Shown here: piece after piece, positions 2,246 to 64,000 of the stretch
Layout of the letters: the number at the start of each line of letters is the position of its first letter
Numbering within the stretch: the first letter of the stretch is position 1
Source of the DNA: Pristiophorus japonicus
Lineage: Eukaryota
Direction of reading: 5' to 3'
Length of the DNA stretch: 64,000 nt
Assembly: GCF_044704955.1 (NCBI RefSeq)
Contig: NC_091988.1
Location: 44,578,001-44,642,000 of the forward strand
Translations under genes and position numbers: made by a program
The notes under the pieces: generated by a model
Told to the model about the DNA's origin: nothing
Database searches by the model: none
Seen by the model: only the letters and a program-made list of their open reading frames with translations

Positions 2246-2266
2246 TGGGGCTGGACATTTTGCACC

Positions 2267-2516
2267 TGTCACAGGAAGTATGGCCTCGCAGCGGAACCGT
2301 GGCAATACTGCTTGTACTATTACAAGGTGTGCCACCAGAGGGCACCGCAGTGGGAGACTTGCAGGTTACCTTTACAGGTGTGCCTGGCCTAGTATAAAAG
2401 GCAGGCCACCAGGTGTGATCCTCACTGGAGTTATCAATAAAGGACTAAGGTCACTAGAGTTCAAGTACAACACATTGCCTCGTGGAGTCATTATCAGAGC
2501 ATCTAAAGACATAACA
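2267..2516 (+). mobile_element. Solo LTR
   Basis: TG...CA termini, TATAAAA and AATAAA. Close match to the LTRs at 51599-51831 and 52268-52501. Confidence 0.75.
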
Positions 2517-2713
2517 CCCTCCTGCCTTTCCCTGCCTCTGCATTTGCTTAAAATCTGTTACATTTCTAGCTTTTTCCAGTTCCAACGAAAGGCCATTGAC
2601 CTGAACCGTTAATTCTGTTTCTCTCGCAACAGATGCTGCCTGACTTCCTGAGTATTTGCAGCAATTTTTGTTTTTATTTCAGATTTCCAACATCCGCAGT
2701 ATTTTGCTTTTGT
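2517..2713 (+). repeat. Penelope-like terminal repeat remnant
   Basis: Motif ...ACGAAAGGCCATTGACCTGAACCGTTAA...ACAGATGCTGCCTGAC..CTGAGTATTT..AGCA resembles Penelope pseudo-LTRs recalled from shark genomes (recall, not search). Confidence 0.45.
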
Positions 2714-2759
2714 AATGTCTTTTCTACTTGGATTTCAACAAAGTTTAAAAACACACAAA

Positions 2760-3090
2760 AAGAAAGACTTGCATTTATATTGCACTTCTCATGACTACCG
2801 GACGTACCAAAGCCCTTTACAGACAATGAAGTACTTTTTTTGAAGTATAGTCACTGTTGTAATGTATGAAATGCAGCAGCTAATTTTCACACTGCAAGCT
2901 CCCACAAACAGCAATGTGATAATGACCGGATAATTCGTTCTTTTTTTAAGCAGTGTTGATTGAGCGATAAATATTGGCCAGGACACCTGGGATAACTCCC
3001 CAGCTCTTCTTTGAAATAGTGCCATGGGATCTTTTACAGCCACCTGAGAAGATGGCACGGGTGGATGAAAGTCTCATCTGAAAGACAGCT
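2760..3090 (-). mobile_element. SINE fragment with L2-type tail (DeuSINE-like)
   Basis: L2-like tail (TTGCATTTATAT) plus central GCCATGGGATCTTTTAC..CCACCTGAG and GTCTCATCTGAAAGAC, resembling the Deu domain. Confidence 0.5.
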
Positions 3091-5195
3091 TCCACATGCT
3101 CCCGGCGAAGAGACTCGAGGTGTTCGGCGCCTTCCCAGATGCTTCTCCATTTTGAGTGGTCTTGGGCCAGGGATTCCCAGGTATCGGTGGGGATGTCGAT
3201 TGCTGGACTGACCACCACCTATTCCACTCTGTCATTTCCATCAATGTAGCCCCAAAACAGCAGTGGCAAGAGAGACACTGCCGCAGGAAAATCAACGCTG
3301 GAGCACTCAGACCCTGCTAAGAAAGCCCTATTCAGCCAGCGCCTCACAACTAACCTGATGACTTCCATTGAACCGGAGACGCAGAGTGTCCACAGTGCCT
3401 GGTCTGCCCTCAAGGCCTGCATAATTAGCACCTGTGAAGCGACGCTTGTTCACTCCACCAGGAAACATCAAGACTGGTTTGACGAGAACGACCAGGAGAT
3501 CCAGGAGCTGATAAGCCGCAAGCACAAGGCATTCTTGAACTGGAAACAGCAACACAACTCGAGAGCAAGAAAGCAGCTCCACAGACGTCTGAAGGCCGAG
3601 GTCCAACATAAAACTCGTGACCTAAAGAACAGATAGTGGGTGGAAAAAGCGCAAGAGATCCAGCAACTAGCTGACAACCATGATGTGTGTGGATTCTTTA
3701 GCACAGTCAAGACCACCTATGGCCCAAACTCCCAAGGTCCTATCCAACTGAGGGCCAAGAAAGGAGAGGTACTCATCAAGGACAGAGAGGCAGTCAGTGC
3801 CCGCTGGAAGGAGCACTTTGAAGATCTCCGTAACCGAGACTCTGTCTTCGGTGTGAGTGTCCTGGACTCCATCCCACAGCATGCTACTCATCACCACCTC
3901 AGCACAACCCCAGCCCAGCATGAGGTTGAAAAGGCCATACGACAACTGAAGAACAACATGGCCTCAGGAGCAGATGGAATCCCCGCCGAAGCACTAAAGC
4001 ATGATGGAGAAGCACTATTGGCACGAATCCATGAACTCATTTCTCTTATTTTGAAGGAGGAAAGCATGCCAGGGGATCTGAGAGATCATCAAGAAAGGCG
4101 ACAAGTCTGATTATGGTAATTACAGAGTAGTTTCCCTGCTGTCTGCCACAGGGAAAGTCATCGCAAGAATCCTCCTCAATCACCTTCTCCCAGTGGCTGA
4201 AGACATCCTTCCAGAATTGCCATGCAGATTCCGCCCACTAAGGGGCACAATGGACATGATCTTCACTGTGCGTCAAATTCAAGAAAAATGCAGGGAGCAG
4301 CACCAGCCTTTGTATGTGGCCGCCTTTGACCTCACAAATACCTTCAACATTGTCAACCGGGAGGGATTATGGAGTGTCCTCCTCAAATTCAGCTGCGCCT
4401 CAGACCCAATACACGTGTGGACCGGGGTCAAGCAAGGCTGTGTCATTGCACCAATGCTCTTCTCGATCTTCCTTGCTGCAATGCTCCATCTCACTCTCAA
4501 TAGGCTCCCCGCTGGAGTGGATCTAATCTGCAGAACAAATGGTAAACTGATCAACCTCTGTCACCTCCAGTCCAGATCCAAGATCACCCCACCCTCTGTC
4601 ATTGAATTACAGTATGCAGACGACGCTTGCGTTTGCGCACACTCGGAGGTCGAACTCCAAACCATCGTCAACACCTTCACCGAAGTGTATGAGAGTACGG
4701 GCCTTACACTAAACATCCGTAAGACAAAGGTTCTCTACCAACCTGCCTCCGCCACACAGTACTCCCCCCACCCCCCATTATCAAGATCCATGACGAGGCC
4801 TTGGACAACCTGGACCATTTTCTATATCCCGGGAGCCTACTGTCAACAAGGGCAGATGTCGATGACGAAGTCCAACACCGTCTTCAGTGTGCCAGTGCAG
4901 CCTTCGGCCGCCTGAGAGGGTGTTTGAAGACCGGGACCTCAAACCCGGCACCAAGCTCATGGTCTACAGAGCTGAAGTGATAGCCGCCCTCCTATATGTT
5001 TCAGAGACATGGACTATGTACAGCAGGCACATCAAAGCACTGGAGAAGTATCACCGACGCTGCCTCCGGAAGATCCTGTAAATTTGGTGGCAGGAACGCC
5101 AGTGTTCTCGCTCAGGCCAACATCCCCAGCATCGAAGCATTGACCACGCTCAATCAGCTCTGATGGACGGGCCACATCGTCTGCATGCCCGATAC
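3091..5195 (+). mobile_element. RTE-clade LINE, degenerate ORF
   Basis: ASGADGIPAE, RGTMDMIFTVRQIQEKCREQ, GVKQGCVIAPMLF, LQYADD and ETWTMY motifs across frameshifts. An inverted C-terminal piece lies at about 3091-3200. Confidence 0.85.
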
Positions 5196-5396: not shown

Positions 5397-5455
5397 TGAT
5401 TTAAGCTGAGTGGACCTAGTGAAATACAAGGTCGACACTTAACCTTAACCTTAAA

Positions 5456-5952
5456 GTTGGTGAGAGAGGAGCGACCTATAAAAGGCCCAGCGGGAGATCA
5501 AGAGTCAGCGGCAGTTGGTGAGAGGGAAGCGACCTATAAAAGGCCCAGCGGGAGATCGAGAGCCAGCGGCAGTTGGTGAGAGGGGAGCGACCTATAAAAG
5601 GCCCAGCGGGAGATCGAGAGTCAGCGGCAGTTGGTGAGAGGGGAGCGACCTATAAAAGGCCCAGCGGGAGATCGAGAGCCAGCGGCAGTTGGTGAGAGGG
5701 GAGCGACCTATAAAAGGCCCAGTGGGAGATCGAGAGCCAGCGGCAGTTGGTGAGACGCGGGACCAGCTTATAAAAGGCCCAGCGGGAGATCGAGAGCCAG
5801 CGGCAGTTGGTGAGAGGGGAGCGGCCTATAAAAGGCCCAGCGGGAGATCGAGAGCCAGCGGCAGTTGGTGAGAGGGGAGCGGCCTATAAAAGGCCCAGCG
5901 GGAGATCGAGAGCCAGCGGTAGTTGGTGAGGAGGGTGCGGCCTATAAAAGGC
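5456..5952 (+). repeat. Tandem 58-bp monomer array in the CR1 5'UTR (about 8.5 units)
   Basis: Unit GTTGGTGAGAGGGGAGCGACCTATAAAAGGCCCAGCGGGAGATCGAGAGCCAGCGGCA starts at 5456, 5514, 5572, 5630, 5688, 5746, 5806, 5864 and 5922. Confidence 0.95.
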
Positions 5953-8900
5953 GTACCGGTGCAGCTACAGCGGGAGAGAAAGCAAAATAGAAGTAGAAAG
6001 GAATCAAAAAGTGACGTCACAGCCAATGGGGTAAGTGATTGGTGAGTAGCTTTTCTTTTTATTTTTTATATCAGTAAGTGAACTTTAGCATTGTTACTAC
6101 CAATTTAAGGGTATCTAAGGGTTAAGAAATGGCAGGAGAGCTCGGTCACGTGATATGCTCCTCCTGTACCATGTGGGAACTCGGGGACACTTCCGGTGTC
6201 CCTGGGCGCTACGTGTGTGGGAAGTGTATCCGCCTTGAGCTCTTGATGGTCCGCGTTGCGGAATTGGAGCTGAGGGTGGATTCACTCTGGAGCATCCACG
6301 ATGCTGAGAATGACGTGAGTATCACGTGTAGTGAGTTGGTCTTACCGCAGGAGAAGGATCCACAGCCAGATAGGGAATGGAAGACCAGCAGGAAGAGCAG
6401 TGCAAGAAAGATAGTGCAGGGGTACCCTGTGGTCATTCCCCTGCAAAACAGATACACTGCTTTGAGTACTGTTAGGGGGATGACTCATCAGGGGAGGGCA
6501 GCAGCAGCCAAGTTCATGGCACTGTGGCTAGCTCTGCTGCACAGGAGGGCAGGAAAAAGATTGGGAGCGCGATAGTGATAGGGGATTCGATGGTGAGGGG
6601 AATAGATAGGCGTTTCTGCGGCCGCAACCGAGACTCCAGGATGGTATGTTGCCTCCCTGGTGCAAGGGTCAAGGATGTCTCGGAGCGGGTGCAGGACATT
6701 CTGAAATGGGAGGGAGAACAGCCAGTTGTCGTGGTGCACATTGCTACCAACGACATAGGTAAAAAAAAAAGGGATGAGGTCCTACGAGACGAATTTAAGG
6801 AGCTAGGAGCTAAATTAAAAAGTAGGACCTCAAAAGTAGTAATCTCGGGATTGCTACCAGTGCCACGTGCCAGTCAGAGTAGGAATCGCAGGATAGCGCA
6901 GATGAATACGTGGCTTGAGCAGTGGTGCAGCAGGGAGGGATTCAAATTCCTGGGGCATTGGAACCGGTTCTGGGGGAGGTGGGACCAGTACAAACCGGAC
7001 ATTCTGCACCTGGGCAGGACCGGAACCAATGTCCTAGGGGGAGTGTTTGCTAGTGCTGTTGGGGAGGAGTTAAACGAATATTGCAGGGGGATGGGAACCT
7101 ATGCAGGGAGATAGAGGGAGACAAAAATGAGGCAAAAGCAAAAGACAGAAAGGAGATGAGGAAAAGTGGAGGGCAGAGAAACCCAAGGCAAAGAACAAAA
7201 AGGGCCACTGTACAGCAAAATTCTAAAAGGACAAAGGGTGTTAAAAAAGCAAGCCTGAAGGCTTTGTGTCTGAATGCAAGGAGTATCCGCAATAAGGTGG
7301 ATGAATTAACTGTGCAAATAGATGTTAACAAATATGATGTGATTGGGATTACGGAGTCGTGGCTCCAGGATGATCAGGGCTGGGAACTCAACATCCAGGG
7401 GTATTCAACATTCAGGAAGGATAGAATAAAAGGAAAAGGAGGTGGGGTAGCATTGCTGGTTAAAGAGGAGATTAATGCAATAGTTAGGAAAGACATTAGC
7501 TTGGATGATGTGGAATCTATATGGGTAGAGCTGCAGAACACTAAAGGGCAAAAAACATTAGTGGGAGTTGTGTACAGACCTCCAAACAGTAGTAGTTGGG
7601 GAGGGCATCAAACAGGAAATTAGGGGTGCAGCAGTTATAATGGGTGACTTTAATATGCACATAGATTGGGCTAGCCAAACTGGAAGCAATACGGTGGAGG
7701 AGGATTTCCTGGAGTGCATAAGGGATGGTTTTCAAGACCAATATATCGAGGAACCAACTAGGGGGGAGGCCATCTTAGACTGGGTGTTGTGTAATGAGAG
7801 AGGATTAATTAACAATCTCATTGTGCGAGGCCCCTTGGGGAAGAGTGACCATAATATGGTGGAATTCTGCATTAGGATGGAGAATGAAACAGTTAGTTCA
7901 GAGACCATGGTCCAGAACTTAAAGAAGGCTAACTTTGAAGGTATGAGGCGTGAATTGGCTAAGATAGATTGGCGAATGATACTTAAGGGGTTGATTGTGG
8001 ATGGACAATGGCAGACATTTAGAGACCGCATGGATGAATTACAACAATTGTACATTCCTGTCTGGCGTAAAAATAAAAAAGGGAAGGTGGCTCAACCGTG
8101 GCTATCAAGGGAAATCAGGGATAGTATTAAAGCCAAGGAAGTGGCATACAAATTGGCCAGAAATAGCAGCGAACCTGGGGACTGGGAGAAATTTAGAACT
8201 CAGCAGAGGAGGACAAAGGGTTTGATTAGGGCAGGGAAAATGGAGTACGAGAAGAAGCTTGCAGGGAACATTAAGGCGGATTGCAAAAGTTTCTATAGGT
8301 ATGTAAAGAGAAAAAGGTTAGTAAAGACAAATGTAGGTCCCCTGCAGTCAGAATCAGGGGAAGTCATAACGGGGAACAAAGAAATGGCAGACCAATTGAA
8401 CAAGTACTTTGGTTCAGTATTCACTAAGGAGGACACAAACAACCTTCCGGATATAAAAGGGGTCAGAGGGTCTAGTAAGGAGGAGGAACTGAGGGAAATC
8501 TTTATTAGTCGGGAAATTGTGTTGGTGAAATTGATGGGATTGAAGGCCGATAAATCCCCAGGGCCTGATGGACTGCATCCCAGAGTACTTAAGGAGGTGG
8601 CCTTAGAAATAGCGGATGCATTGACAGTCATTTTCCAACATTCCATTGACTCTGGATCAGTTCCTATCGAGTGGAGGGTAGCCAATGTTACCCCACTTTT
8701 TAAAAAAGGAGGGAGAGAGAAAGCAGGGAATTATAGACCGGTCAGCCTGACCTCAGTAGTGGGTAAAATGATGGAATCAATTATTAAGGATGTCATAGCA
8801 GCGCATTTGGAAAATGGTGACATGATAGGTCCAAGTCAGCATGGATTTGTGAAAGGGAGATCATGCTTGACAAATCCTCTGGAATTTTTTGAGGATGTTT

Positions 8901-39561: not shown

Positions 39562-39835
39562 GCCTCTCTCGACTCCCGCCTCTCTCGACGCTCCCCGGAC
39601 TGCTGAGCCTTTTATAGGCCGCTGCCTCTCTCGACTCCCGCCTCTCTCGACGCTCCCCGGACTGCTGAGCCTTTTATAGGCCGCTGCCTCTCTCGACTCC
39701 CGCCTCTCTCGACGCTCCCCGGACTGCTGAGCCTTTTATAGGCCGCTGCCTCTCTCGACTCCCGCCTCTCTCGACGCTCCCCGGACTGCTGAGCCTTTTA
39801 TAGGCCGCTGCCTCTCTCGGCTCCCGCCTCTCTCC
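39562..39835 (-). repeat. Tandem 62-bp monomer array in the CR1 5'UTR (about 4.4 units)
   Basis: Units start at 39562, 39624, 39686, 39748 and 39810; each complete unit has CCTATAAAAGG on the minus strand. Confidence 0.92.
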
Positions 39836-42800
39836 GTAATATACATTAATGATTTAGATGAAGGAATTGAGTGTAATATCTCGAAGTTTACAGATGACAC
39901 AAAACTGGGTGGTGGCGTGAGCTGTGAGGAGGATGCTAAAAGGCTGCAGGGTGACTTGGACAGGCTAGGTGAGTGGGCAAATGCATGGCAGATGCAGTAT
40001 AATGTGGATAAATGTGAGGTTATCCACTTTGGTGGCAAAAACACGAAGGCAGAATATTATCTGAATGGTGGCAGATTAGGAAAGGGGGAGGTGCAACGAG
40101 ACCTGGGTGTCATGGATCATCAGTCATTGAAAGTTGGGATAGAAGTACAACAGGCGGTAAAGAAGGCAAATGGTATGTTGGCCTTCATAGCTAGGAGATA
40201 TGCGTATAGGAGCAGGGAGGTCTTACTGCAGTTGTATAGGGCCTTGGTGAGGCCTCACCTGGAATATTGTGTTCAGTTTTGGTCTCCTAATCTGAAGAAG
40301 GATGTTCTTGCTATTGAGGGAGTGCAGCGAAGGTTCACCAGACTGATTCCCGGGATGGCGGGACTGACATATGAGGAGAGACTGGATCAACTGGGCCTTT
40401 ATACACTAGAGTTTAGAAGGATGAGAGGGGATCTCATAGAAACTTACAAGATTCTGACGGGACTGGACAGGTTAGATGAAGTAAGAATGTTCCCGATGAT
40501 TGGGAAGTCCAGAACCAGGGGACACAGTCTTAGGATAAGGGGTAGGCCATTTAGGACTAAGATGAGGAAAAACTTCTTCACTCAGAGAGTTGTTAACCTG
40601 TGGAATTCCCTACCGCAGAGAGTTGTTGATGCCAGTTCATTGGATATATTCAAGAGGGAGTTAGATATGGCCCTTGCGGCTAAAGGGATCAAGGCGTATG
40701 GAGAGAAAGCAGGAAAGGGGTACTGAGGGAATGATCAGCCATGATCTTATTGAATGGTGGTGCAGGCTCGAAGGGCTGAATGGCCTACTCCTGCACCTAT
40801 TTTGTATGTTTCTATGCTTCTATGTTTGTCAGGGTTTCCACAGCTCTTCTGCTGAACTTTGCATAAGATTGGAAATTCCACCCTGTTAGAATTACTTTTA
40901 AAAACTGCTTAATTTTATATATTACCTCGACACTCATCTTTTATTTGTACCAGTTACTGATGTAAAAGTTTATAGATTTGTGACTAAAGCACCAATAACT
41001 TCCCAATTAATGTACTTAAAAAAAATTATGATCTTGATTGTCTTTGTAGTTTGTGTCATATTACTTAATGATAATATTTAAATAGTTCTTTGTCACTCAT
41101 GCATAAATTTTCTATTATTGTAGAGTAAACATTCAACACCGACTATGTTAGATTAAACTTAAAATTTTAAACACATCATGAATGACGTCACCAGAATGAC
41201 TGCCCCATCTAATTGGGCTGGGTAACGCGCTGGGTGTGCTTAATCGACCCCATTAAGTTCAGTTAATTTTCTACAGCGGGATGAATCCAGCAGCAGGGTC
41301 ACGACCCAACACAGATACTGGCTGCACTGGACCCGCCAATGTATGGAAAATGTTTACCTTCAGCCTGGAACTCTTCTCTACCTCCAACACAATTCAAGCT
41401 GGCACTTTTTGTCTCCCCTGGCATCTGTTCAAGCTGGCACTTATTTCTAGTTTTATTTGGCACTCTATTCACTCAGTAAATAAATACTGGCATTCCACCA
41501 CACACCCTGGCCACAAGCACCCCACCAACAACCCCCCCCCCCGCCCACTCCCCCCCCCACCCCCACACACACATCCCACTCTGTACTTAATATTGGCATT
41601 CTCCATTCTACCCCAATCTGAAGTCCTGCATCCAGCTTCTGCCCCATCTTGCTTCATTTCATTCATTCATTTTACTCTCTCCTTCATTAGCCCCTTCATA
41701 ACCATCCATTTTACCCCCCCCCCCGTTCATTTTCTTCCCTCATGATCCATTCTACTTCATTACCATCCATTTAACCCACCAATTACATCCATTTTCCTTT
41801 ATTATTGCCATTTATTTCCCTTTTATTTATATCCATGCCCTCTTCATTACCATCAATTTCCTCCTTCAATGCCATCCATTGGTAATCCCTTACTCCATTA
41901 TTTGCTCCCAACCACCCTGTGCTCTCCGCTCCTGTCGGAATCCAGCTGCTAATGGACCTTTTCTCAATACCATTCCTGCTGCTAATGGCAGTGATTCCAG
42001 CCAATGTTTTGGCAAATAAAATGATATTCAAATTACTCCATAAACCTCGCAAAGGATTTTGGCTTTCTTTATAAAATTGAAATTTTCTAGTCATATCAAA
42101 TATAATTTTTGTTAATAAAGAGACAGATGTTTAATAAACAATACACGTAGAATAAACAGTTCTTCTCAGTCAGTGACAGCATCTCAAAAACTCCTCTTCC
42201 TATTTCAGAGGAAATTGGAGTGCCTAGTATGTACAGTTACCCCTGGCTAACTCAGAAATCTATTCATGGACAAGTTTTGCAGCCAAAGAAAGCAAACTCA
42301 AGCACTGCAAATACTTACTTACTTTGACTGAAAGGCAACTGCAATGACTGACAGGTATAATTTAAATGAGTTGTCAGGTGAAAGTCAAGTACAATGTAAA
42401 CCATCAAATGCAAAGTAAACCATTACTTGGCAAACTAGGGTTGTTAGGGCATGAATCAGGCTACAGGAGATCCAATTTGCCCAATAGTATCCTGTAGAAC
42501 TTATTGTGTCTGTACTTCCAGCAATGAAAAAAAAACAAAATAATAAGCAGCACATACTTGTTATTGTTCCTTCCAGCTGCACTCTGTTGAGCCAGTTGAT
42601 ATAAAAAAGATTGTTCAGCAACAATGGCCATTGTTTTAAACAGACAGTAACAAATAATAAGTTACTCATTCGGGAAATGTAATTGCTATGGACTGAGCAT
42701 TGTATCATATAAAAGGAACTGTTCAACACAAAGTTACAGGAGTGTTAATACAATTACATATTAGAGGTTCACCAGTTGACCACAACCATAACTACAAAAA

Positions 42801-47360: not shown

Positions 47361-50178
47361 AAGTATCTGAAAGAAAAAAAATTGCAGGGCTACTGGAAAG
47401 GGTGGGGGAGTGGGACTTGCTGAAGTGCTCTTGGAGAGAGCCAGCATGGCTTAATGGGTTGAATGGCCTCCTTCTGTGCTGTAACCATTCTATGATTCTA
47501 AGTCCTCATGAGAGGTCCTGCCTACAGTATACAGCAGGCAGAATTACTGCCATGAGTGGTGTTGTCCAGTTGGACTTCGATAGGACTAGGGGTGCCAGCA
47601 ATGGAGCAAAGACGTATGGGATCAGGGAAGAGAGGAATGGCAATAGTGAAGTAGGCGGGCCCCGTTCGCTCTAATTTGAGGACATACGAAAAGACAGACC
47701 ATCAAGCCTGTCCCAAATAGTCATGATGCAACTAAGCATCATAACCACTAGTGTACCCGCTCACTCATCGTCATGTAAGGCATAAAATCAGGTTTAAAAA
47801 AAATGAGTCAAATCAGGGACAAAAGAATCTCAGAAATTTCTCTCCAACCCTTCAAAGGCAAAGGATATCAGAGTGACCATGAGGCACTTAACCAACATCC
47901 CACCTACTTTTTCCATGCAGTGATATTAATCACAGCAAGGAACCCTTTTTGAGCTGCGAATCTACACTTACCACACAAACCAGTAACTTGTTCCTGTGAT
48001 AGAGCTGCCCCACGAAGACTACTCCACTTCGTGGACTACTGATGTAATGCAACTACTGATGTAAGCAATAAAGGATCATGTGGCAAAGTCAAATGATGAC
48101 AGGTTTCTGTATTGGAGCCATCTTGTTTAGAGTGTGTTAGTGATGTTGTCAAAATATATCACATTGGCGATGAGGATAGGATTTCTGGATTCCCTAGTTG
48201 AAATTTTTGATGGTGGATAAGCCAGCCAACCAATAGAGAGACTTTGAGAGGTTCCTTGTTTTGCAGAATGGCTAAAAATCCAACGTAAATTGCAAGCACA
48301 GCTGGTTGAACTGTCGCCATTGCCAGAGACCAGAGGGCCATGTCTATGGGAATAATAGGGTACATGGGTGAGTTCCATCATGAACGAGAGACTTTCAGAG
48401 TGTATGTGGAGTGGCTAGAAATGTTTTCAATTGCGAATAGTATCGTCAAAATCCCCGATGATGAAAACCATAATCGGGTGGTATTAAAAAGAAAACGGGC
48501 TATTTTCTTGACTGAAACAAGCCCTGAGGTGTATGAAACCTTGAAAAATGTGCTTGATTCCATCAAGCCAAAGGACGCGCCACTGGAAAATTGCACTACA
48601 GTTCAGAGCCCCTGGAAATTGCTGAAAGTTATAATTTTGGAACACGAGATCAATTAATTGATGAGAGTATCTGTGAGTACATTGCAGCTTTACAAAAGCT
48701 ATCCATTTACTGTCATTTCGGAAACTTTCAGGACCAAGCATTGCGTGATCGCTTTGTGAGATCAGATGTGAAACAATCAGAAGAAAATTGTTGACAACCC
48801 CTAACTTCACTTTTGATTTAGCTTGTCAAACAGCTATGTCGATGGAAATGGCTGATCAATACTCCCTAGAATTTCACGCCATTTCCAGTCGTCAGACAAC
48901 TGAGGTGAATCGCCTGCAGGTTAAAAGTATACGTCAGTTTGGCCCCAAGGCCTCAGCAACTGGCCAAGATAACAGAGCATTGAAGTGATGCTATTGGTGC
49001 CTGGGACAACACATTGCTCAAAGCTGTCCATATGTGAAGGCAGAGTGTTTCTTCTGCAAGAAAACTGGGCATCTTGCAAAGGATTTTTAATGCTAGAAGT
49101 AGAAATCGCCAGACACTACATAGCATTGAAGAGAAGCAACAGGGCAAGGAGGTTCTGGAGATACACGTCATTGGGAGCACGAGGTTATCTAACAGCAATT
49201 TACAAAGTATTGTCATCCAAGTAGACGTTGCAGGAACTAAGATACCCATGGAAATTGACACTGGTACATCCGTACGTGTAGTACTGGAATCGCTATATCT
49301 CAACAAGTTGCGTGATTTTCGACTGGAGAAATTGAAGATAGAGTTGCGAGGCTACTCAGGAGAGTAAATTCCTGTTGTAGGACGTATTGCCGTAATGGCA
49401 AAATCCAAGGATCAGATACATAGCTTGCCTCTCATAGTAATGACAGGAGACAAGCCTGCCTTGATAGGTAGAAATTGGTTGGGAACACTGAAGCTGGATT
49501 GGAATGAGATTTTTCATGTAGAAACAAAATTTGCATCGAAAGATGATGTCATCAAACATTATCCGAAGGTGTTCCGCGAAACAGGCAGTCTGATCCAAGG
49601 CTTCAAGGCAAGTGTCAGAGTGCAGAAGGATGCTCGACCAGTTTAATGCAAGCCACGTCTCGTACCATACGCACTCAAGGAAAAAGTTGAGCAAGAACTC
49701 AAAAGACAAGAAACTGAGAACATTATCTGTAAGGTAGATCTAAGTAATTGGGCTACACCCACTGTTGTTGTATCTAAGTTAGATGTTAATGCTAATGCTA
49801 TATCTAGGTTGCCATCTCCATCACAAGTTACCACAATAGGGAAGAAGTGTACCATTTTTCATATATTGATGAACTGCCAGTCACAATTGAAAAGATTGGT
49901 CGTGCAACCAAACGCGACCTAGTTATGTCAAAGATGTATGATTACAGAGCAAATAGCTGACTAAACCAGATATACGAGAAAGATATTCATCCATACTTTA
50001 TTCGTTGGAATGATTTATCAGTGGATAAAGATTGTATCTTGTGGGGTGCAAGAGTGGTATTCCAAATAAATTCAGGTCCAAATTGTTAAGAGATCTTCAT
50101 GACCAGCACCTGGGAATGTGCTTGACCAAGAGTTTTGCACACAGTTATTTATGGTGGTCAGGTTTAGATAAAGATATT

Positions 50179-50791
50179 GGGGCCAAATTTCATCAAGGCC
50201 TCCTCCAGCCCAAGTGCCGTCCAACATGCTGCCGATGGCCGCCGAGGTATGGGACGATACTTTGGGTGGGATATTCATGAAGAAGGTCCCTCAAATGTCA
50301 GCAGGCGGCAAATGGACGACGTACTCCGCCAATCTGGGCGACAGCAGGCGGGAGGTCTCATTTTCGGCAGCAGAGGCGCTTGCCGCCCAAGTGCCACCGA
50401 GGATGGAGTGCCACGGAGGGTCGAAGAGCTGTAAAAAAAAATCATCAATAAAAAATACAAAAACTATACGAAGACCTTCAGGGCACCCCATGCAGGTAAG
50501 TCGCTGTTGAATGTTTTTTTAACCATTGGGGACAGACCAGCTTCCACACAGCGGTCCACTCCCATTCTGCCGCCGACTCCCACCCGCAGGAATCTGGGAG
50601 CTCGGCGGGCGGGAGTACAGTTGCGCCACTCGGCCATCCACTGACGTCAGCGGGCAGTTCCCGGTGGCTCTCTCCGCCAGCCCGCTCAAGGCCATCTCCA
50701 AAGTGGCACTGAATGGATCTTCAGGAGGAATGTTGGTGGAAGAGGGAGGCAGTCGGCAGCAGCGGACGGTGGGCTGATGAATTTCGACCCC
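50179..50791. mobile_element. MITE inserted in the integrase Zn-finger region
   Basis: Imperfect TIR GGGGCCAAATTTCATCA / TGATGAATTTCGACCCC; flanks ATT/ATA. Removing it rejoins the host frame GLDKDI-EYIVSQC. Confidence 0.8.
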
Positions 50792-51598
50792 ATAGAGTAT
50801 ATCGTTAGTCAATGTACAACATGTCAATCAGTAAGCAAGAAACCACCATCAGTTCCATTGCAGCTATGGAAATGGCCTCCCAGGGTGTGGCAAAGGTTAC
50901 ATGTAGATTTTGCTGAACTAGAAGGACAACAATTGTTCGTTGTGATTGATAGTCATTCGAAGTGGGTAGAGGTATTTCCGATGCAGAAAATAACAAGTAA
51001 AACACTGGACAATTTGCAAAGATTGTTTTCTTCATATGGCCCGCAGAAGAAATTGTGTCTGATAATGGGCCGCAATTTTGTTCAGAAGAATTTGCACAGT
51101 TCATGAGCAGAATCGGTGTGAAACATACTAAAGTTCCACCATACCATCCTTCTTCAAATGGTGCAATAGAGCGCACAGTAAAAATTGTAAAATGAGGCCT
51201 CATCAAGCAAATGTTGGATCCAAATCCAAAGAAACAACAGTTGTTGTTGGATCACAAACTGGCAAATTTTCTAATTATTTATCACACAAGTACTGGTAGA
51301 ACACCAGCAGAGTTTGTCGAATGACAGCCACAAACCAGGTTCTCATTGTTAAAGCCAAACTTGGCACAATCGGTAGAAGAGAAAAAGAATCATGATAGAG
51401 GTAGAGTAAGAGAGAGAATTGTGAAATTGAATTAGAAGGTTAGAGTGAAGAACCATAACCATAAATGGTTAACGTGGTTACCAGGAAGAATAGTGAAGAT
51501 ATGTGACCCTCGCACATATTGGGTCAAAATGTTTGATCATGTTTGTTCACATTGATCATATTTTACCTACCGATGTGGAAGTAGTTGAAAGTGGGAAT

Positions 51599-52057
51599 TG
51601 TCATGTATCCTACATGCTACTGTTGATACTATCTCAAGGTGTGCCACCAAAGGGCACAGCAGTGGGAGACTTGTAGGTTACCTGTACAGGTGTGCCTGGC
51701 CTAGTATAAAAGGCAGGCCATCAGGTGTGATCCTCACTCTGGAGTTAACAAATAAAGGACTAAAATCACTACAGTTCAAATACAAAACATTGTCTCGTGG
51801 AGTCATTATTTTAGCATCCAAGGACACAACAATTGGCGACGAGATTATGAACTTTCACACAAAAATGGCTACCCTTGGTACGTTGCAGCAGTTCTGGAAC
51901 TAGTTTGTCCTTACTCACCGGTCACCGCATTGATAATATATCTCACCAGTCTAACGTACTTGTGTCACAACGGAACCACAAATGTAATGCAAACTTGTTT
52001 TTCTGAACTTGAATGTATATGAATGCAATGAGTCTCCGGCATAATCTATATGTGTGT

Positions 52058-52088
<31 letters not shown>

Positions 52089-52501
52089 GGAAGAATGGAG
52101 TCATAAGGGACACACACAAACAGCAACCATCAGCACTCTACTGCACCACCACTCACCCAAGATTGAAACGACCTGCCAAGGGTCAAGAAGATAGAGCCCA
52201 GATAGAGCTAAGCCCAGAGCACAGTCAATGCAGAGACGATTTGCACTAAAGGCTTAGGGGAGAGTGATGTCATGCATCCTACATGGCTATTGTTAGTACT
52301 ATCACAAGGTTTTCCACCAGAGGGAACAGCAATGGGAGATTTGTAGGTTACCTGTACAGGTGTGCCTGGCCTAGTATAAAAGACAGGCCATCAGGTGTGA
52401 TCCTCACTCTGGAATTAACAAATAAAGGACTAAGGTCACTACAGTTCAAGTACAACACATTGCCTCGTGGAGTCATTATTTGAGCATCCAAGGACACAAC
52501 A
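51599..52501 (+). mobile_element. TRIM-like miniature LTR element
   Basis: LTRs 51599-51831 and 52268-52501; TSD GGAAT; PBS TGGCGACGAG; PPT; 436-bp interior carrying only the gag start (MATLGTLQQF). Confidence 0.92.
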
Positions 52502-54317
52502 GGAATGATTCGATTATTTCTGATGAGTCAGACAGTATTGTTACAAGTAATGTACCAGTAGAAAATCCTACATCAGATGTACTAGAAACAAGTCCAAGAG
52601 AAAGTGAAAATTGAAGTCCGATTCCTAGTCAGGCCGACAAACGGTCTGAAGTTGTAAAGAATCAAAATGTAGATCAAGGGTTGCCCTTGGAGAAAAACTC
52701 TCCCCAGGCTCAGCCTAGAATGAGTCTAAGTTCAACACCAAGTTTGGAAAGTTCTGTTCAAGAGCGAAGGTATCCTCTTTGAAACAGAAAACCAGTGGTT
52801 AAGTTTGATTTGTAAATATGGAAGAATAAGTTCATATCTTTTGTTTTGTATAACCATGCAAGTTATGAATAATGATTATTTTGTTATGATTATTTATTCA
52901 TTAAGAAGGGAAAAGTGTAATAGAGCTCCCCTAGTGGACTACTACTGTACTGCAACTACTAATGTAAATAATAAAGGATCACATGGCAAAGTCACATGAA
53001 TACAGGTTTCTGTATTGGAGCCATCTTGTGTCGAGTGTGTTAGTGATGTAAGAATATATAACAGTTCCAAGTGTTGACAACCCTTTGACTAAAAAAAAAC
53101 ATCACATCTAATCTTGTCCTATGCTTGCATAGCTTATAAAGGGTTCCTCAATGTGGTGTATGTAGCACTCAAATCACAGACTCCACACAGTCTGGTGTTG
53201 TAGTAACTGCTGTAACCTTAGCCCTTTATTGTGTAACTCCAGAGTGCCTCTCAGGTGTGGTGGGCAGCCTTTTATACTCTGTCTTGCAGGTACCTTCAGG
53301 TCTCCCACCACAGTGCCCTCTGAGGCGCACCATTGTACTTATACATTTAATGTACCTGGACAATACATAACATCTCACTTCTCCCCCAGTTCCAGAAGCC
53401 ATTGCCGGTGACCTCGGCCTTGTTCGTCCTGGTTGATTTGTGAGTGTGAGTCCATGAAGTTCATGACTATCCACTTCCCTCTTCTCCCCTATGTAAAGGT
53501 TATGCTTGCGATCCGGTGCAAGCCTGCGGTATTTGCAGTCCTTACATGGGTGATGAAGTACACAAGCATAACCTCCAACAGAAAACAGGTATACATAGAC
53601 AGTACATTTGTATGGTACATATAATATGTGGTACAGATGTTGCAGGTACACTGAACAGTTATTTAATCCCAGCTCCTCTGGGTGAGGTGCGGTGGCGGTA
53701 TAGTGCCCCTTTTTGCCCGAGCTAACGGGCTGCGCTGAGACAGGGTATCACAACTAGTGCATTGCCTCTGTTCTCAGAAAGTGATCGCCTTAGAGGCTCA
53801 TCTGCAGCTGCTGAACCATTGCATGAATCACATAAATCGAGAATTGCATTGGTCCACTAATCATGTTAGTCACAGATCCATTTACCCTTTTACTGTACCT
53901 TGTGGTATTAACTCTTTTTGTAATACATATCCCTTATTTTAAACACAGTACCCATTCAGCATCAAAATATTAACTCTTATCATAACTCACTTCATCATAC
54001 AAATCACATTGCTCATTTAGACTCGCTCTTGCCTTACAAAAGTCTCTTTGTGGGGCCCACCATGGTGTAAAGCCTTTTAAGACTCCCGGGTGCATTTCCC
54101 TTTTAAGACGCCATTTTGTGGTTCCCACGAGGCTTCCCTTGGGCGCCGCCATTTTAGTTACTCTGCTTGCATTTGTCTGCAGAGCTCTGCTGCCACGAGG
54201 CTCGCCACCATCTTGAGCTCGCTGGCATGACGTTTTACATTCTGGAATAGAAGGATTAAAGAGGAAAGAAGAAAGGAAACCAGCTAAGACAATTTGATCA
54301 TGGCTCTTTGGATTCGA

Positions 54318-54714
54318 TCAGTCATAGTCCTTGTGAAAGCGGCCTCCGTAATTGGTGCTGTATCCGCCGCTCTGGCTCTTGTACCCACCTGAGTAGCTGT
54401 CGCGTTCTCCCGAGTCATACCTGCCACCGCCGGAGCATCTGCCGCCGCTGTAGCCTCTGCTCCTGCCGTTGTACCAGTAACTACCGCCTCTCCTGCGGCC
54501 GCCGTAGCCACCACCACCGCCGCCGCTGTCCCGGCCTCCACCGTAGCCGCGACCGCCGCCTGACTTTTTCTCCGCGTGGGCCCCCCCCCCGGATTTGTCG
54601 GCCATCGATGGATTTCCCTTTCATCGCCTGCAGCGCGTCGCCAGCTTGCACCTCAGCGATCGGTCCGTACTTGAAAAACTGCTCTTCCAGGGTCTGCTCG
54701 TCTGTGTGGGGATT
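54318..54714 (-). pseudogene. Captured processed RBM3/CIRBP-family sequence (RRM remnant plus RGG/Gly-Tyr tail)
   Basis: TDEQTLEEQFFKYGPIAEV and DALQAMKGKSIDGRQIR..HAEKKSGGGRGYGG...SQSGGYS...KDYD-stop match cold-inducible RNA-binding proteins. No introns; RNP1 segment deleted. Confidence 0.85.
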
Positions 54715-55996
54715 TCTCCTCCAGCTTGGTCGGCGCTGCTCTTTGGGAACCCGGGGAACAGCAGTCTGTGGAGGAATGAAGTCTTTCCAGCTCCCATGGA
54801 CCTTCCCCATCCACCTCCTGCCGAGAAGCGTCGGCCCATCGCCTGCAATGACCCACAAAGGTAAACCATGCGTCTCGCCCCCGTGAGATACCTGCACATC
54901 CGCTCTGCCAAGAACAGGTATCAGTTCCTTGGTGTAGGTACGCAGCTTTGCTGTGACCGGAACCAGCTTGGGTCGTGCAGCTGGGTTGACTCACAGTTTA
55001 TCAGAAATTTCCTGACTCATCAACGACGGACCCGATCCAGTGTCCACTTCCATACTCACTGGGACTCCGTTAATCTTGACTTCCATAATCACTGGGGCTG
55101 AACCGTCAGTACACGTATACAGACCAAACGCCTCATCTTCTTCTGCCTGCTCCTCGCTGGAAGATGGACCCTCTACCATCTCCTCAGTCACACGGTGAGT
55201 CAGATTTCTTTTGCACATACGCTGAAGGTGGCCTTTCGTGTGGCAGGCATTGCATGTATACTCCGCAAACCTGCACCGGTGAGCCCCATGGCTTTCTCGC
55301 AGCGCCAGCATGGTGCTACTCGATTAGCCCCCCTCGGCGGACTCTGAGTTCCAGGACCCCGAGATACGTGCTCTCTGCCCTGGGCAGAGCCACGTTCTGC
55401 AATTTTGTCTGTGGTGGGCGCTATTCTGTGGACAGTGCCTGCCGGGTTCGAGACTGTGTGTATCATCTGCTTGGTGCTGCAAGTCGAGGTCATAAATGCC
55501 CTGCTGATGGTAATGGCTTGCTTCAGGGTGACTGTGGGTTCAGTGGATAGCAGCTTGTGGAGGAGACCCTCATGTCCAATCCCCATAACAAAGACGTCCC
55601 GCAACGCGTCGTCAAGGTGTGTGCCAAAATCACACGGCGCCCCGAGTCTCCTGATGTCTGCAGCATATTTGGTGACATCCTGGCCCTCAGGTCTGCAGTG
55701 GTGGTAGAATTTGTGCCTGGCCATGAGAATGCTCTCCTTCGGTTTCAGTTGGCCACGAATAAGTTCAATCAGCTCCTCATATGATTTGTCCTTGGCGCTC
55801 ACGGGTGCCAGCAAATCCCTGACGAAACAGTAAACCTCATCACCGCAACTGGAAAGCAATATCGCCTTACGCTTCTCTCTCAGTGCGTCCGTGTTCCCCG
55901 TCAAGTCGTTTGCTGTAAAGTAGTACTCGAGCCTTTCCGTAAAGGCCTCCCAGTCATGGCCACTGTAAAATCCTTTAACGAGTCCAGAGTACCCAT
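54715..55996 (-). pseudogene. gag plus aspartic protease
   Basis: ATG at 55996; LRDVFVMGI; Zn knuckles (CWRC, CNACHTKGHLQRMC); EVDTGS; LLGRRW. Frameshifts and one in-frame TGA (54991). Confidence 0.9.
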
Positions 55997-56851
55997 GGTT
56001 GCGTGAAGTTCGTCCGTGTCCTCGTTGCCAATGTAGTGTATGCAGCGCTCAAATCACTGACTCCACGCAGTCTGGTGTTGTAGTAACTGCTGTGACCTTA
56101 GTCTTTTATTGTGTAACTCCAGAGTGCCTCTCAGGTGTGATGGGAAGCCTTTTATACTCTTGTCTTGCAGGTACCTTCAGATCTCCCACCACATCGCTTA
56201 CTTATACATTTAATGTACCTGGACAATACATAACACTCAGAAGTTACAGCTGGAAGTATGGAGCACCTCTGTGGAAAGTCCGGGCAATTAAGTTTAGAAA
56301 TTACCTGAAAATATAAAATGAGTGTTAAAAGAGATTTTTTAAAGAAAAAAAAAAGATGTTATTAGTTCATTCTTTAACATGGTGAGTTGGGACTCTGAAA
56401 TAATTTCATTGTAAATAGATTTCACTAAATCTGTGTTAAATATAAATAGTTTTATTGCGCATTAGTTAACAAATGCTTTAATGTGTATTCATCAAATATA
56501 TACACAAAGGTGCCTCAATTAACCATACTACTATTATCCACACCAACAATTATCTGCAAGGAATCAAGGCGCTTAGTTTAGCAGAAAGCCTTTTATATAT
56601 AATTGAGTGGTTTAAATTGGTTTTCACAGACTAGATTCTTGATCTAGCAGGATGCGTAGTTGTTATTTGGATGTGCAGTACCTGCTAAGATTTACTATCC
56701 ATGCAGCTTAAATTTGTGTCAGACAATACGTGGGGACAAGATTTTGGGTCCAACAGACCAGCAAGAGTTGGTGTTCCAACATTATTTTCAAGAATACCTC
56801 ACTTTTTAAATGAAAAAATTTTACTTTTCTGCATGTTGATGGAGGAATTTA

Positions 56852-58759: not shown

Positions 58760-60436
58760 TTAAGACTGAATGTGAAGAATAGTTTTGAATGTTTTCTTAA
58801 AGTTCTTGTTGCACAGAGGGTAAATGAATGGGTTAAGTGTTGAGTTAATGTAACCCAGCCATATTGTGAACATATGTAAATTGTGATTGATACATGTATC
58901 ACAGAAAGCCATAACCATAAATGCCACAAAGTAGGGAATCCAGCACACCATGAACCCTGCCATTATGAAACCCAATTGCTTGACAGCTTTTCTTTCTTTT
59001 ACTATGAGAAGGCCTTGTACGTACTGCACAGACTGTGAGAAAAACTTCTGCCATGATTGTTTAAATTGATTAATGCTGTCTGTTCCTTCAGTTTCTTCAG
59101 ATTCATGAACCCAAGATGGTGCTTCTGGACGTGGACAAGACATAGAACCAAACTGAAGCAACACCTCATTGAATGTTTGTATATCAGAGATATCTGATAT
59201 TTCACATTTTTCATCAGCTGAATTCTCTGCATTGTGTTCTTTTGTAGTCATGTATGTTTGTTGGGTGTTATTACCTCTTTGTCTGTGCAGTACACTCCTA
59301 GGAAAGTACTTTAGTTTTGCTATGGCAACAGGACTATCCAGGGTAAGATTTTCCCTTGAGTTTGCAATATAATTTAGACTGTAATCTGGTTCCATATGCT
59401 GATTTTGTGACTTACTGAGAGGCAATGACCTATGGTAAAAATCTGTTGAAATTTGTCGCTTTGATGGTGAAATGGAGAAGACATCAATACCTTCAATTGG
59501 GATGTTCTTCTCACCTCCTAAAGTATAAGACGTCTTGATTTCTTTTAAGTCAGAACAGTTAAACCTGCACTGTGAAAATTTGCACGTATCTTTGATTTTT
59601 GTATTTGGGGGTTCATGATCTGAATTTTCATCTTGTTGGTTCAAGCAAGTTTTATGTTTGTGCCATGATAGTTTCACATTCTCCTTGAAAATTTCTCTGT
59701 CTATAGTTGAGCACATAGGTCCACTTATATTGTCCCGTTGCTGCCAGTGTTTTCTTACAGCCATGTAAATTTTTGTGTAATACCACAGCATTAGTATAGA
59801 TGGGACATAAAAGTTCAGGACCGCAGTAAGAATTTTGAACCAGGTGACATAGCGAAATTCAGTCTCACATATATTGTTTGTGACAGTCCTGATACCTCCA
59901 TTTGCAAAGAAATGCCATCCTAAAATGGGCATGATCCAAGTCAGTGAAAGAAGCCAGGCTGCTACTATCGTAGCAACTGCTCTAGCTCTTGTCCGATACT
60001 TCAGATATCTCAATGGCTGACGAACTGAACGGTAACGATCCACACATAGAATAAAAAGGCTAAAAATTGAAGCTGTGCTAGCCACATAATCCATGGAAAG
60101 CCAAAACTGACAGATCGCTCTTCCTAGTTTCCATTCATTTTCTAATGTGTACATAATATTAAGGGGCATGACTGTCACACCAACTATCAGATCTGCCATG
60201 GATAGACTAACTATGTACATGTTTGCAACAGTTTGTAGTTTTCTTTCACTTTTCACTGCATATAGCACCAAAACATTCATGATGACAGTCAATAAAGATA
60301 AAAAGCCCAAGACTAGACCAAGTAAAATGTTCTTGGCAGGAAGCTGGTGGTAGAAATCTTCTTTTGTGTAGTTTTCTGTTGTAAAAACTGTATAATTTGC
60401 GATGTGTATAATTGATGTTGCAGTAGTAATATTCAT
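58760..60436 (-). CDS. HRH1: Histamine H1 receptor (class A GPCR), single coding exon, 558 aa
   Basis: 7TM pattern with WLSMDYVASTASIFSLFILCVDRY, TAVLNFYVP, ERKAVKQLGFIM..CWIPYF and HMFTIWLGYINSTLNPFIYPLCN..FKKTFK.ILHI. First ATG at 60436. Splice acceptor TTTTGTTTTTCAG ends at 60525, so the 5'UTR exon(s) lie further right. Confidence 0.96.
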   Translation of the reverse strand: MNITTATSIIHIANYTVFTTENYTKEDFYHQLPAKNILLGLVLGFLSLLTVIMNVLVLYAVKSERKLQTVANMYIVSLSMADLIVGVTVMPLNIMYTLENEWKLGRAICQFWLSMDYVASTASIFSLFILCVDRYRSVRQPLRYLKYRTRARAVATIVAAWLLSLTWIMPILGWHFFANGGIRTVTNNICETEFRYVTWFKILTAVLNFYVPSILMLWYYTKIYMAVRKHWQQRDNISGPMCSTIDREIFKENVKLSWHKHKTCLNQQDENSDHEPPNTKIKDTCKFSQCRFNCSDLKEIKTSYTLGGEKNIPIEGIDVFSISPSKRQISTDFYHRSLPLSKSQNQHMEPDYSLNYIANSRENLTLDSPVAIAKLKYFPRSVLHRQRGNNTQQTYMTTKEHNAENSADEKCEISDISDIQTFNEVLLQFGSMSCPRPEAPSWVHESEETEGTDSINQFKQSWQKFFSQSVQYVQGLLIVKERKAVKQLGFIMAGFMVCWIPYFVAFMVMAFCDTCINHNLHMFTIWLGYINSTLNPFIYPLCNKNFKKTFKTILHIQS

Positions 60437-60844
60437 GATGGACAAAGCAGACTAGTTTACACAGCCTGAATACACAACTTGGTCACAGAGTCGATACTCC
60501 TGATTGACATGTTAAAGATCGTGTCTGAAAAACAAAAGTCAGTGAGTCATTACTTGCAGACTTGACATATTTAACAGCAGTCAAAAAACAAAAACAATTA
60601 GCTTAACTATTGCCTAATTGCATACAATGTATTGAAAAAAAATCTGCTTCAGTTACACTTGGTGGATTCATACAATTTGTATTTTCATTAAAATTGTGTT
60701 GATGTGGAGTATTTTATAGCAACCAAACAAAAGTCAGTTGAAGAAATAATAATTTTAAAATGTTAGAGGAAGTGGGTTAGGAAGGTTGTAAACTTCCACA
60801 AGCATACAGCTGAACTAATAAGATGTTTTTTGCTTTTTGCCAGA

Positions 60845-62891: not shown

Positions 62892-64000
62892 TGTTATGTA
62901 TTGTCCAGGTACATTAAATGTATTAGTACAATAGTGCGCCACAGAGTGTGCTGTGGTGAGAGACCTGAAGGTACCTGCAAGACAGAGTATAAAAGGCTGC
63001 CCACCACACCTAGGAGGCACTCTGGAGTTACACAATAAAGGACTAAGGTCACAGCAGTTACTACAACACCATACTGTGTGGAGTCAGTGATTTGAGTGCT
63101 ACATACACCACATTGGTGACAAGGACACGGACGAACTTCACGCAACCATGGCTACTCTGGGCTCGTTAAAGGAATTTACGGTGGGCAATGATTGGGAGGC
63201 CTTTACGGAAAGGCTCGAGTACTACTTCACAGCAAACGACCTGATGGCGGTCACGGATGCAATGAGAGAGAAGCGTAAGGCGATATTGCTTTCCAGTTGT
63301 GGCGAGGAGGTTTACTCATCGGGGATTTGCTGGCGCCCGCGAGCGCCAGAGACAAGTCATATGAGGAGCTGATCGCATTCATTCATGACCAACTGAAACC
63401 GAAGGAGAGCATCCTCACAGCCAGGCACAAATTCTACCACCACTGCAGACCTGAAGGCCAGGATGTCACCAAAATTGCTGCGGACCTCAGGAGACTCGCG
63501 GCACCGTGTGATTTTGGCACACACCTTGACGAGGCGCTGCGAGACGTTCTTGTTATGGGGATTGGCCATGAGGGGCTCCTTCACAAGCTGCTATCCCATG
63601 AACCTACAGTCACCCTGAAGCAAGCCATCACCATCAGCCGGGCATTTATGACCTCGACTTGCAGCACCAAGCAGATGATCCACAGTCTCGAACCCGGCAG
63701 GCACTGTCCACAGGATAGCGCTCACCATGGACAAAACTGCAGACCACAGCTCTGCCCAGGGCAGAGAGCACGGACCTCGGGGTCCTGGAACTCAGAGTCT
63801 GCCGAGGGGTGCTAATCGAGCAGCACCATGCTGGCGCTGTGGAGGAAGCCATGGGGCTCACCGGTGCAGGTTTGCGGAATACACGTGCAATACCAGCCAC
63901 ACAAAAGGCCACCTTCAGCGAATGTGCAAAAGAAACCTGACTTACCGTGTGGCTGAGGAGATGGCAGAGGGTCCACTTTCCAGCGAGGAGCAGGCAGAAG
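62892..64000 (+). mobile_element. Second copy of the 53152-56235 LTR family (runs off the window)
   Basis: LTR 62892-63112, PBS TGGTGACAAG, gag from 63148 closely matching 55996-55140 in the opposite orientation. Confidence 0.92.

Follow-up and report, generated by a model that had tools for sequence, protein, structure and literature searches.

Acutely transforming retroviruses carry host coding sequence that is fused in frame to the gag region and replaces pol, and they depend on a helper. In LTR-mediated retroposition, partial host mRNAs are found between LTRs, multigene chimeras occur, and a template-switch model has been proposed (Tan et al. 2016, PMC5131818). The same source describes a mouse “super” retrocopy composed of four genes and an Alu, as well as secondary amplification as non-autonomous elements. 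The maize LTR element Bs1 harbors exonic pieces of three host genes, shows shared switch points and secondary retroposition, and is present in one to five copies (PMC5131818, PMC7264820). According to PMC7264820, transduced pieces usually exist in one or a few copies and usually lie in the sense orientation. Plant genomes contain “semi-autonomous” TR-GAG and GAG-PROT elements, which keep GAG or GAG plus protease but lack RT, RH, and INT (PMC13570524). Furthermore, 42 mouse circRFWD2 pseudogene copies, associated with an LTR (MMERVK10C), preserve a back-splice junction in DNA, by a mechanism that was called “mysterious” (Dong et al. 2016, PMC4897178).

Here, we analyzed a stretch of 64,000 nucleotides (the window; G000:C12:44578001-44642000) from the 5.9-Gb genome of the shark Pristiophorus japonicus. 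It contains an LTR element with a piece of a cold-inducible RNA-binding protein (CIRBP) gene behind its protease. We consider it probable that this damaged element belongs to a large Ty3/Gypsy family without pol, in which Gag and protease (Gag-PR) were constrained, RT and integrase were likely borrowed, host sequences were likely captured by repeated template switches, and the CIRBP piece likely was a passive tail. Most known cases of LTR gene capture concern one or a few copies, whereas the captures described here gave rise to an entire high-copy family in a vertebrate, which continued to capture host sequence. The cases presented in PMC5131818, whose supplements may list antisense or higher-copy examples, are single or few-copy, while the shark family comprises thousands of copies. 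It also differs from them by its own constrained Gag-PR, by repeated capture in one slot, and by the antisense orientation of three of the seven identified pieces. Like the plant elements, it has Gag-PR only and no RT, RH, or INT, and its Gag was kept functional during amplification (see below), but the GAG-PROT definition as given in PMC13570524 includes no host-mRNA cargo behind the protease. In contrast to the transforming retroviruses, it is a Ty3/Gypsy element in which we saw neither env nor a sign of a selected host domain.

In a family of this size, junctions, orientation, and order can be compared among many copies, which makes it possible to test, in one system, models of template switching, the capture of antisense sequence, and the unexplained path from circular RNA to DNA. 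Serial capture in two orientations, including a circle, is a stronger result than the idea of a functional RNA-binding module, with which the analysis started.

Anatomy of the element in the window

The minus strand of the window (positions 53152 to 56235) contains a Ty3/Gypsy element with LTRs, gag, two Zn knuckles, a protease, and an in-frame CIRBP piece but without pol (Table 1). The LTRs, PBS, PPT, and target-site duplication expected of a Ty3/Gypsy element are present. The order LTR-PBS-gag-Zn knuckles-protease, followed by PPT and LTR, had been read from the letters of this stretch beforehand (the sequence-only reading), and we confirmed it, on the minus strand, as well as a protease frame that runs straight into the RRM remnant. 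The 5′ and 3′ LTRs differ by approximately 14 mismatches in approximately 203 columns (counted by eye). Duplications of 5 bp also border many other family copies.

Table 1. Features of the pol-less element and of the second family member, in window positions
Feature	Position	Strand	Remarks
Target-site duplication, 5′ side, 5 bp	56236..56240		Partner at 53147-53151, 1 mismatch; read directly
5′ LTR, 204 bp	56032..56235	-	18-nt deletion compared with the 3′ LTR
Putative primer-binding-site position	56020..56031	-	A similar site follows the related LTR at 51832 (+)
gag, with a capsid-like region and a linker leading to two CCHC-type Zn knuckles	55200..55996	-	ATG at 55996; frame break near 55295
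Aspartic protease in the gag frame	54790..55100	-	Pfam Asp_protease_2, E 2.5e-4, below the curated cutoff
RRM remnant of CIRBP, continuing the protease frame	54584..54714	-	Host nt 37-103 joined to 173-236
G-run	54581..54590	-	Length varies among copies; frame shift in the window copy
CIRBP RGG/Gly-Tyr tail with host stop codon	54318..54580	-	Stop at 54320-54318
Start of CIRBP 3′ UTR, host nt 496-535, partly deleted	54293..54317	-	Without poly(A)
Eroded antisense remnant of an exon of the C28 ADAD-like (dsRBM/adenosine-deaminase) gene	54222..54294	-	Score 38.8; shuffle maximum 32.4
Noncoding 3′ region common to the family	53388..54221	-	Approximately 950 nt noncoding from the CIRBP stop to the PPT
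Polypurine tract	53373..53387	-	Read from sequence
3′ LTR, 221 bp	53152..53372	-	Read from sequence
Second family member	62892..64000, continues past the window	+	5′ LTR 62892-63112, gag ATG 63148

The window copy is damaged. The protease catalytic triad (55044-55036) is followed by a stop codon at 54993-54991, and this stop, the frame break near 55295, and the shift in the G-run at 54590-54581 agree with the lesions noted previously. However, the deletion of RNP1, which had been counted as damage to this copy, is family-wide: RNP1 (host residues 36 to 44) is covered in 1 of 101 A-type copies, and RNP2 was lost twice more after the RNP1 loss. In the window remnant, RNP2 and RNP1 (β2-β3) are both missing, and these deletions are common to subfamilies. 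Loss of RNP1 removes core strands of the RRM.

The element that runs past position 64000, suspected to be another copy, does belong to the same family, but its cargo differs from that of the window copy. Beyond the window, its protease is followed by a piece with RNP2, a portion of a 57-nt insert, and, in sense orientation, a 5′-terminal segment of approximately 750 nt from a VTT-domain gene; the common 3′ region and a 3′ LTR complete the element. Its LTRs are 3.2% apart, and a 5-bp target-site duplication is present.

A large Gypsy family without pol

A protease 20-mer has at least 1,910 exact matches genome-wide (reversed control, 0) and is present in 72 of the 134 family copies collected previously, suggesting approximately 2,000 to 3,500 family copies. 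A 31-mer from the 3′ region has 173 exact matches and is exact in 18 of 52 unselected copies, which suggests approximately 500 copies for the classes that keep this 3′ motif. The CIRBP segment is neither confined to one copy nor a chance match: the 40 candidates scored among 1,757 all match, and the protease-RRM junction is common, with the same join across the 30 loci listed. CIRBP-derived DNA occupies the slot behind the protease in 82 of 85 mappable copies among 90 loci chosen by the 3′ motif; the other five of the 90 have no protease end. In a separate step of the analysis, seven duplicates were left out. Among 30 protease matches, 20 contain CIRBP-like DNA (6 strong and 14 weak, the latter being GC-rich and detected with the filter off). 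One pair of loci with identical element and cargo, L011 and L012 on C4110 and C4, is probably an assembly duplicate.

No pol was found within 1.5 kb of the protease in the first 30 protease-selected matches, in line with the absence of pol from the window copy, and the same 30 copies included no pol-bearing member of the family itself. The LTR-to-LTR spans are 2.2 to 4.2 kb (69 copies), and, as in GAG/PROT elements, the protease-selected copies sampled are free of RT, RH, and INT. LTR pairs, measurable at 69 of 88 loci (the remaining 19 were left out), diverge by 1.9 to 9.0%; the median is 4.8%, and that of subfamily D is 3.2% (P = 0.07). Therefore, no young copy was seen. None of 66 A-type copies has an uninterrupted reading frame between the ATG and the CIRBP stop.

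The long relatives of Gag-PR (49 matches, 24 to 34% identity) are single-ORF Ty3/Gypsy Gag-Pol proteins, one of them named K02A2.6-like, with RT/RH and mostly IN Pfam domains. These relatives identify the element as a Gypsy retrotransposon and not a retrovirus. Presumably the family is Mag-like; the element itself is without RT. A pol-bearing sister family with RT behind PR shares approximately 28 to 36% identity over Gag-PR and yielded 188,228 first-look candidates. Four family members (L009, L019, L230, and L237) sit inside other Gypsy elements, and such nested insertions probably reflect the abundance of the sister family.

The window also contains a decayed pol-bearing Gypsy element at 48310-52500 on the plus strand. 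Two LTR copies lie at 51616-51831 and 52286-52501, the former followed by a gag start, and another LTR lies at 2304-2519. The LTRs of this element are approximately 70% alike to part of the LTR of the pol-less family, and its lineage is a possible helper lineage. Both this lineage and the sister family are distant candidates for the autonomous partner.

In the subfamily tree, which is unrooted, lacks an outgroup, and has short internal branches with weak internal support, subfamily D is a well-supported clade with shorter tips. It accounts for 17 of 30 protease-selected copies. D copies read a minisatellite after the protease and have no recognizable RRM (three copies with ORFs listed). Subfamily B is without the RGG tail.

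Proteins 78 to 80% identical to Gag-PR, as well as element-type RRM fusions, carry one species label only among the 8,000 candidates scored for each, which weakly suggests a lineage restriction of the family. We found no description of the family in the literature searched, a search that did not extend to subscription journals or to Repbase/Dfam. Some copies are annotated as “RNA-binding protein 3-like” genes (P0001 to P0003) and inflate that gene family in P. japonicus.

The CIRBP piece and its host source

The best PDB matches of the RRM remnant were CIRBP and RBM3 (E values of 4e-7 to 7e-7), and window positions 54714-54293 are identical to a host CIRBP-B-like gene (G000:C7:219.66 Mb) at 364 of 409 positions. 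We conclude that the captured piece is CIRBP derived, as had been proposed. It spans host nt 37-103 and 173-535, while nt 104-172 are missing. The host CIRBP-B-like protein aligns at 100% to one uninterrupted genomic stretch. Indeed, all five CIRBP-like paralogs at C7 219.41-219.76 Mb (L031 to L034 and L037) have uninterrupted coding sequences; three of them are near-identical recent duplicates. CIRBP and RBM3 genes of bony vertebrates are multiexon, and the intronless C7 cluster is unusual beside them. Since host CIRBP is intronless, introns cannot prove a spliced source of the CIRBP piece, and the argument from missing introns made by the sequence-only reading fails. That the source was RNA nevertheless holds, carried by other, spliced cargo and by the endpoint of the capture.

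This endpoint is found in subfamily B, whose cargo consists of the 5′ UTR and nt 1-155 of paralog 4 (91% identity versus 84 to 85% to paralogs 1 to 3). In 30 of 34 copies (counts for B leave out 3 of 37 copies without RRM), the piece begins at host nt -79, which lies 30 nt past a TATA-like box and would be the expected mRNA 5′ end of paralog 4. The intronless coding sequences are also what one would see if the piece had come from genomic DNA, or from a read-through transcript of an element beside the CIRBP cluster, as in retroviral transduction from a neighboring provirus, instead of free mRNA. We regard such an origin as highly improbable, because the piece starts at the predicted transcription start without promoter DNA, because the loci of paralogs 1 to 3 (8 to 9.5 kb) contain no element sequence beyond the CIRBP piece, and because other cargo is demonstrably spliced.

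In A-type cargo, including that of the window copy, the 3′ part is nearest to paralog 1. A single copy (L056) has a whole RRM, itself broken, the middle of which is nearer to paralog 4 (67/70 versus 63 to 65/70); this suggests a second, homology-guided switch. At the junction of CIRBP and the circle described below, 7 of 8 positions match, and short matches were seen by eye at other switch points. Neither poly(A) nor an internal target duplication was found around the cargo in the copies listed, so that a retrocopy inserted later, the alternative considered at the outset, is not indicated.

All A-type CIRBP cargo shares A>G and T>C changes at approximately one-third of the A and T sites and has drifted to higher GC; in gag-PR and the 3′ region the value is 6 to 13%, with thresholds and yardsticks that differ from those used for the cargo. 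A-to-I editing was rejected as the cause of the excess of amino acid changes, as shared A>G (0.35 per A) and T>C (0.33 per T) did not differ (P = 0.89).

Other host RNAs in the same slot

Judged by sequence, the slot behind the protease repeatedly took up host RNA. CIRBP is thus one of several captured RNAs, which the sequence-only reading had not noticed. The identified sense cargo comprises pieces of two CIRBP paralogs, spliced FSAF1, and the 5′ end of the VTT-domain gene, and the antisense cargo comprises DLG exons in spliced form, histone H1, and a back-spliced three-exon circle, copied for one full lap. The DLG cargo encodes PDZ1 (Pfam PDZ, 3e-18; PDB matches to DLG1/2/4) and joins three host exons on C6 with 94 to 99% identity, the introns of 7.8 and 3.3 kb being gone. 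In the FSAF1 cargo, five exons of a host gene on C7 are joined. The linker histone H1 match (Pfam E 7e-4) is below the cutoff. Approximately 750 nt of the 5′ end of the VTT-domain gene (C1; presumably TMEM64-like) are present in three copies, including the second element of the window. Intron-free host exons inside the element, the mark of LTR-mediated retrocopies, are thus found in DLG, FSAF1, and ADAD-like cargo.

L133, L205, and L206 belong to a DLG-cargo subfamily that is more diverged and has a 20-nt deletion. The same pattern was seen in many of the 150 scored matches, so antisense DLG is present in many more copies than the sample chosen by the 3′ motif showed.

Three pieces have no assigned source: the 57-nt insert, a GC-rich piece of 190 to 340 nt in B, and a 440-nt piece in L083. 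Against Rfam, the best match of the 57-nt insert reached 17 bits, far below the cutoff, and a 7SL origin, considered because of a resemblance, was not supported.

In five B-like copies (L157, L160, L165, L179, and L184), 90 to 130 additional nt separate the protease motif from the cargo slot, and the CIRBP piece is apparently missing; these copies may be precapture or deletion forms. Tandem expansions in the cargo slot were seen in L076, L080, L096, L113, L147, L152, and L206 and in D-type copies; their units of approximately 18, 33, 45, and 54 nt (by eye) are multiples of three, and the expansions reach approximately 2.5 kb.

One lap of a back-spliced circle

The source gene of the ADAD-like cargo, located on C28, contains a dsRBM-like region upstream of adenosine-deaminase exons, and we take it to be ADAD-like. 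The exons were not found within 60 kb upstream of two deaminase loci and were later located by protein search. A PDB search with the cargo found nothing, and its Atlas matches were dsRBM-type leads under 0.9.

In the host gene, the exons have the order A-B-C over 44 kb; exon C follows exon B at a distance of 28 kb and exon A at 44 kb. In the cargo, the order is B(3′)-C-A-B(5′), antisense, in 4 of 4 mapped copies. The C-to-A join lies at splice sites with AG/GT flanks, and each exon was found once in the 162-kb host locus. One base of the circle is missing. The ADAD-like cargo of subfamily B reads as one full lap of a back-spliced three-exon circle in antisense orientation, with the noncolinear exon junction at canonical splice sites that defines circRNA pseudogenes. 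In contrast to circRFWD2, this circle lies inside a defined element, is antisense, and comprises exactly one lap.

A query from the circle cargo gave approximately 100 matches. An eroded circle remnant follows the CIRBP 3′ UTR in the A-type copies tested, including the window copy; it is clear in sister copies (scores of 178, 111, and 105) and weak in the window copy alone. The junction sequences suggest that B with the circle may have preceded short B and the A-types, with the reservation that the tree is unrooted and weakly supported internally and that recombination is evident.

Cargo in both orientations would be easily explained if it did not come from particles but from LINE (CR1/L1) retrocopies, or from cDNA patches at DNA breaks, in successive master copies that were then trimmed and amplified. 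CR1-like RT fragments are indeed common in the window and at the loci. We disfavor this origin and hold it to be improbable: every capture lies in one slot of a few hundred bases, the copies listed have neither poly(A) nor an internal target duplication, and the pieces come from internal or 5′ regions and not from 3′ ends. Moreover, one piece is the exact single lap of a circle, which has no poly(A), and the mosaic of paralogs points to homology-guided switching.

Constraint on Gag-PR but not on the CIRBP part

Selection was assessed by comparing subfamily-fixed changes with changes within subfamilies, which postdate insertion and were taken as neutral. In the capsid, 16 nonsynonymous and 30 synonymous fixed changes compared with 1023/613 (relative omega, 0.32; P = 3e-4), and in the protease, 12/18 compared with 570/330 (relative omega, 0.39; P = 0.012), whereas the linkers were unconstrained (111 copies). 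The CIRBP part (101 copies) gave 42/15 versus 784/431 (relative omega, 1.54; P = 0.2), a result that rests on 57 changes and on cargo-defined subfamilies, although recombination occurs (L059 groups with A3), and that is blind to composition-level selection on the low-complexity tail. Within it, relative omega was 1.86 for the RRM remnant (21/7 versus 243/151) and 1.36 for the RGG tail, with no difference from neutral (101 copies). The contrast between Gag-PR and the CIRBP part was significant (P = 0.004). We conclude that Gag and protease evolved under purifying selection and that the CIRBP part did not. For the captured part, for which a dN/dS analysis had been proposed, this comparison revealed no amino acid constraint.

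The reading frame shows a different pattern. The shared RRM-remnant indels of at least 3 nt (-24, -21, +57, -120, and -69) all keep the frame (5/5). The corresponding figures are 7 of 23 for private indels (P = 0.008) and 5 of 21 for shared indels in noncoding DNA; the test was post hoc and small. For tail indels, the difference between shared (12/13) and private (43/62) frame keeping was not significant (P = 0.16). Ten of 13 basal B copies read the paralog-4 RRM in frame. Overall, 43 of 92 copies read the tail in frame across the G-run; the length of this run may also be altered once a copy has inserted, or by the assembly. By class, the figure is 31 of 50 for RNP2-retaining copies, 7 of 14 for one deletion class, and 5 of 28 for the subfamily to which the window copy belongs. 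The in-frame shared indels suggest that read-through, but not a folded RRM domain, was probably favored for some time. Element genes were constrained and the captured domain was not, yet the frame was kept.

The frame gives reason to consider that CIRBP, chiefly its RGG tail, was co-opted on Gag-PR as an RNA-packaging, chaperone, or condensate module that aided competition for helper enzymes, at least in the A1 and A3 lineages. Besides the in-frame protease-CIRBP junction, the frame-keeping shared indels, and the tail in frame in most RNP2-retaining copies, we found no stop codon in the CIRBP part that is fixed in a subfamily, and the tail shows repeat expansions. Nevertheless, we judge co-option to be rather unlikely. 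The CIRBP part is without amino acid constraint, RNP1 is gone from 100 of 101 copies, and the tail is mostly out of frame in the window's subfamily. Furthermore, B spread without the tail, D, the commonest class in the protease sample, has an eroded one, and Gag already has two Zn knuckles. In its RRM form, the functional module considered by the sequence-only reading is unlikely: the window copy lacks RNP1 and RNP2, and a functional CIRBP/RBM3 RRM would be under the purifying selection that we did not detect. The comparison with transduction of oncogenes by retroviruses also did not hold, given the Gypsy Gag-PR backbone and the unconstrained cargo.

Proposed route of capture

Returning to the pol-less family with a passive CIRBP tail, we propose that the Gag-protease of the element would package its own RNA in cis, in mixed particles that contain the Pol (RT and IN) of a helper. 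The helper RT and integrase likely would come from another Gypsy family. Host pieces would be gained by repeated template switches onto copackaged RNAs, a model as in PMC5131818. Sense cargo could arise by minus-strand switching, when the enzyme runs to the mRNA 5′ end and jumps back, and antisense cargo if the growing plus strand, or a separate cDNA, were templated on host RNA. For the circle, priming on the circle combined with removal of the copied RNA by RNase H could yield exactly one lap. The window-type cargo may have resulted from a second, homology-guided switch between CIRBP paralogs, followed by in-frame deletions. An open frame behind the protease would have mattered for a time, and the residues would not.

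More speculatively, and with clear reservations, the family may have been a standing RNA-sampling vector, the slot of which logged the RNAs of germline particles over millions of years, including the one-lap antisense circle, which would represent a priming-and-RNase-H route for circRNA retroposition. Under the same tentative proposal, a host-derived basic tail on Gag-PR would have been frame selected, and the antisense cargo, present in hundreds of copies, could be a source of small RNAs that target ADAD-like, DLG, and histone H1 genes.

Other features of the window

At positions 58760-60451, the minus strand of the window encodes a single-exon rhodopsin-family GPCR of 563 aa (Pfam 7tm_1, E 8e-61), which we presume to resemble the histamine H1 receptor. 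Tandem arrays with units of 58 nt and 62 nt are located at 5410-6017 and 39562-39871, respectively.
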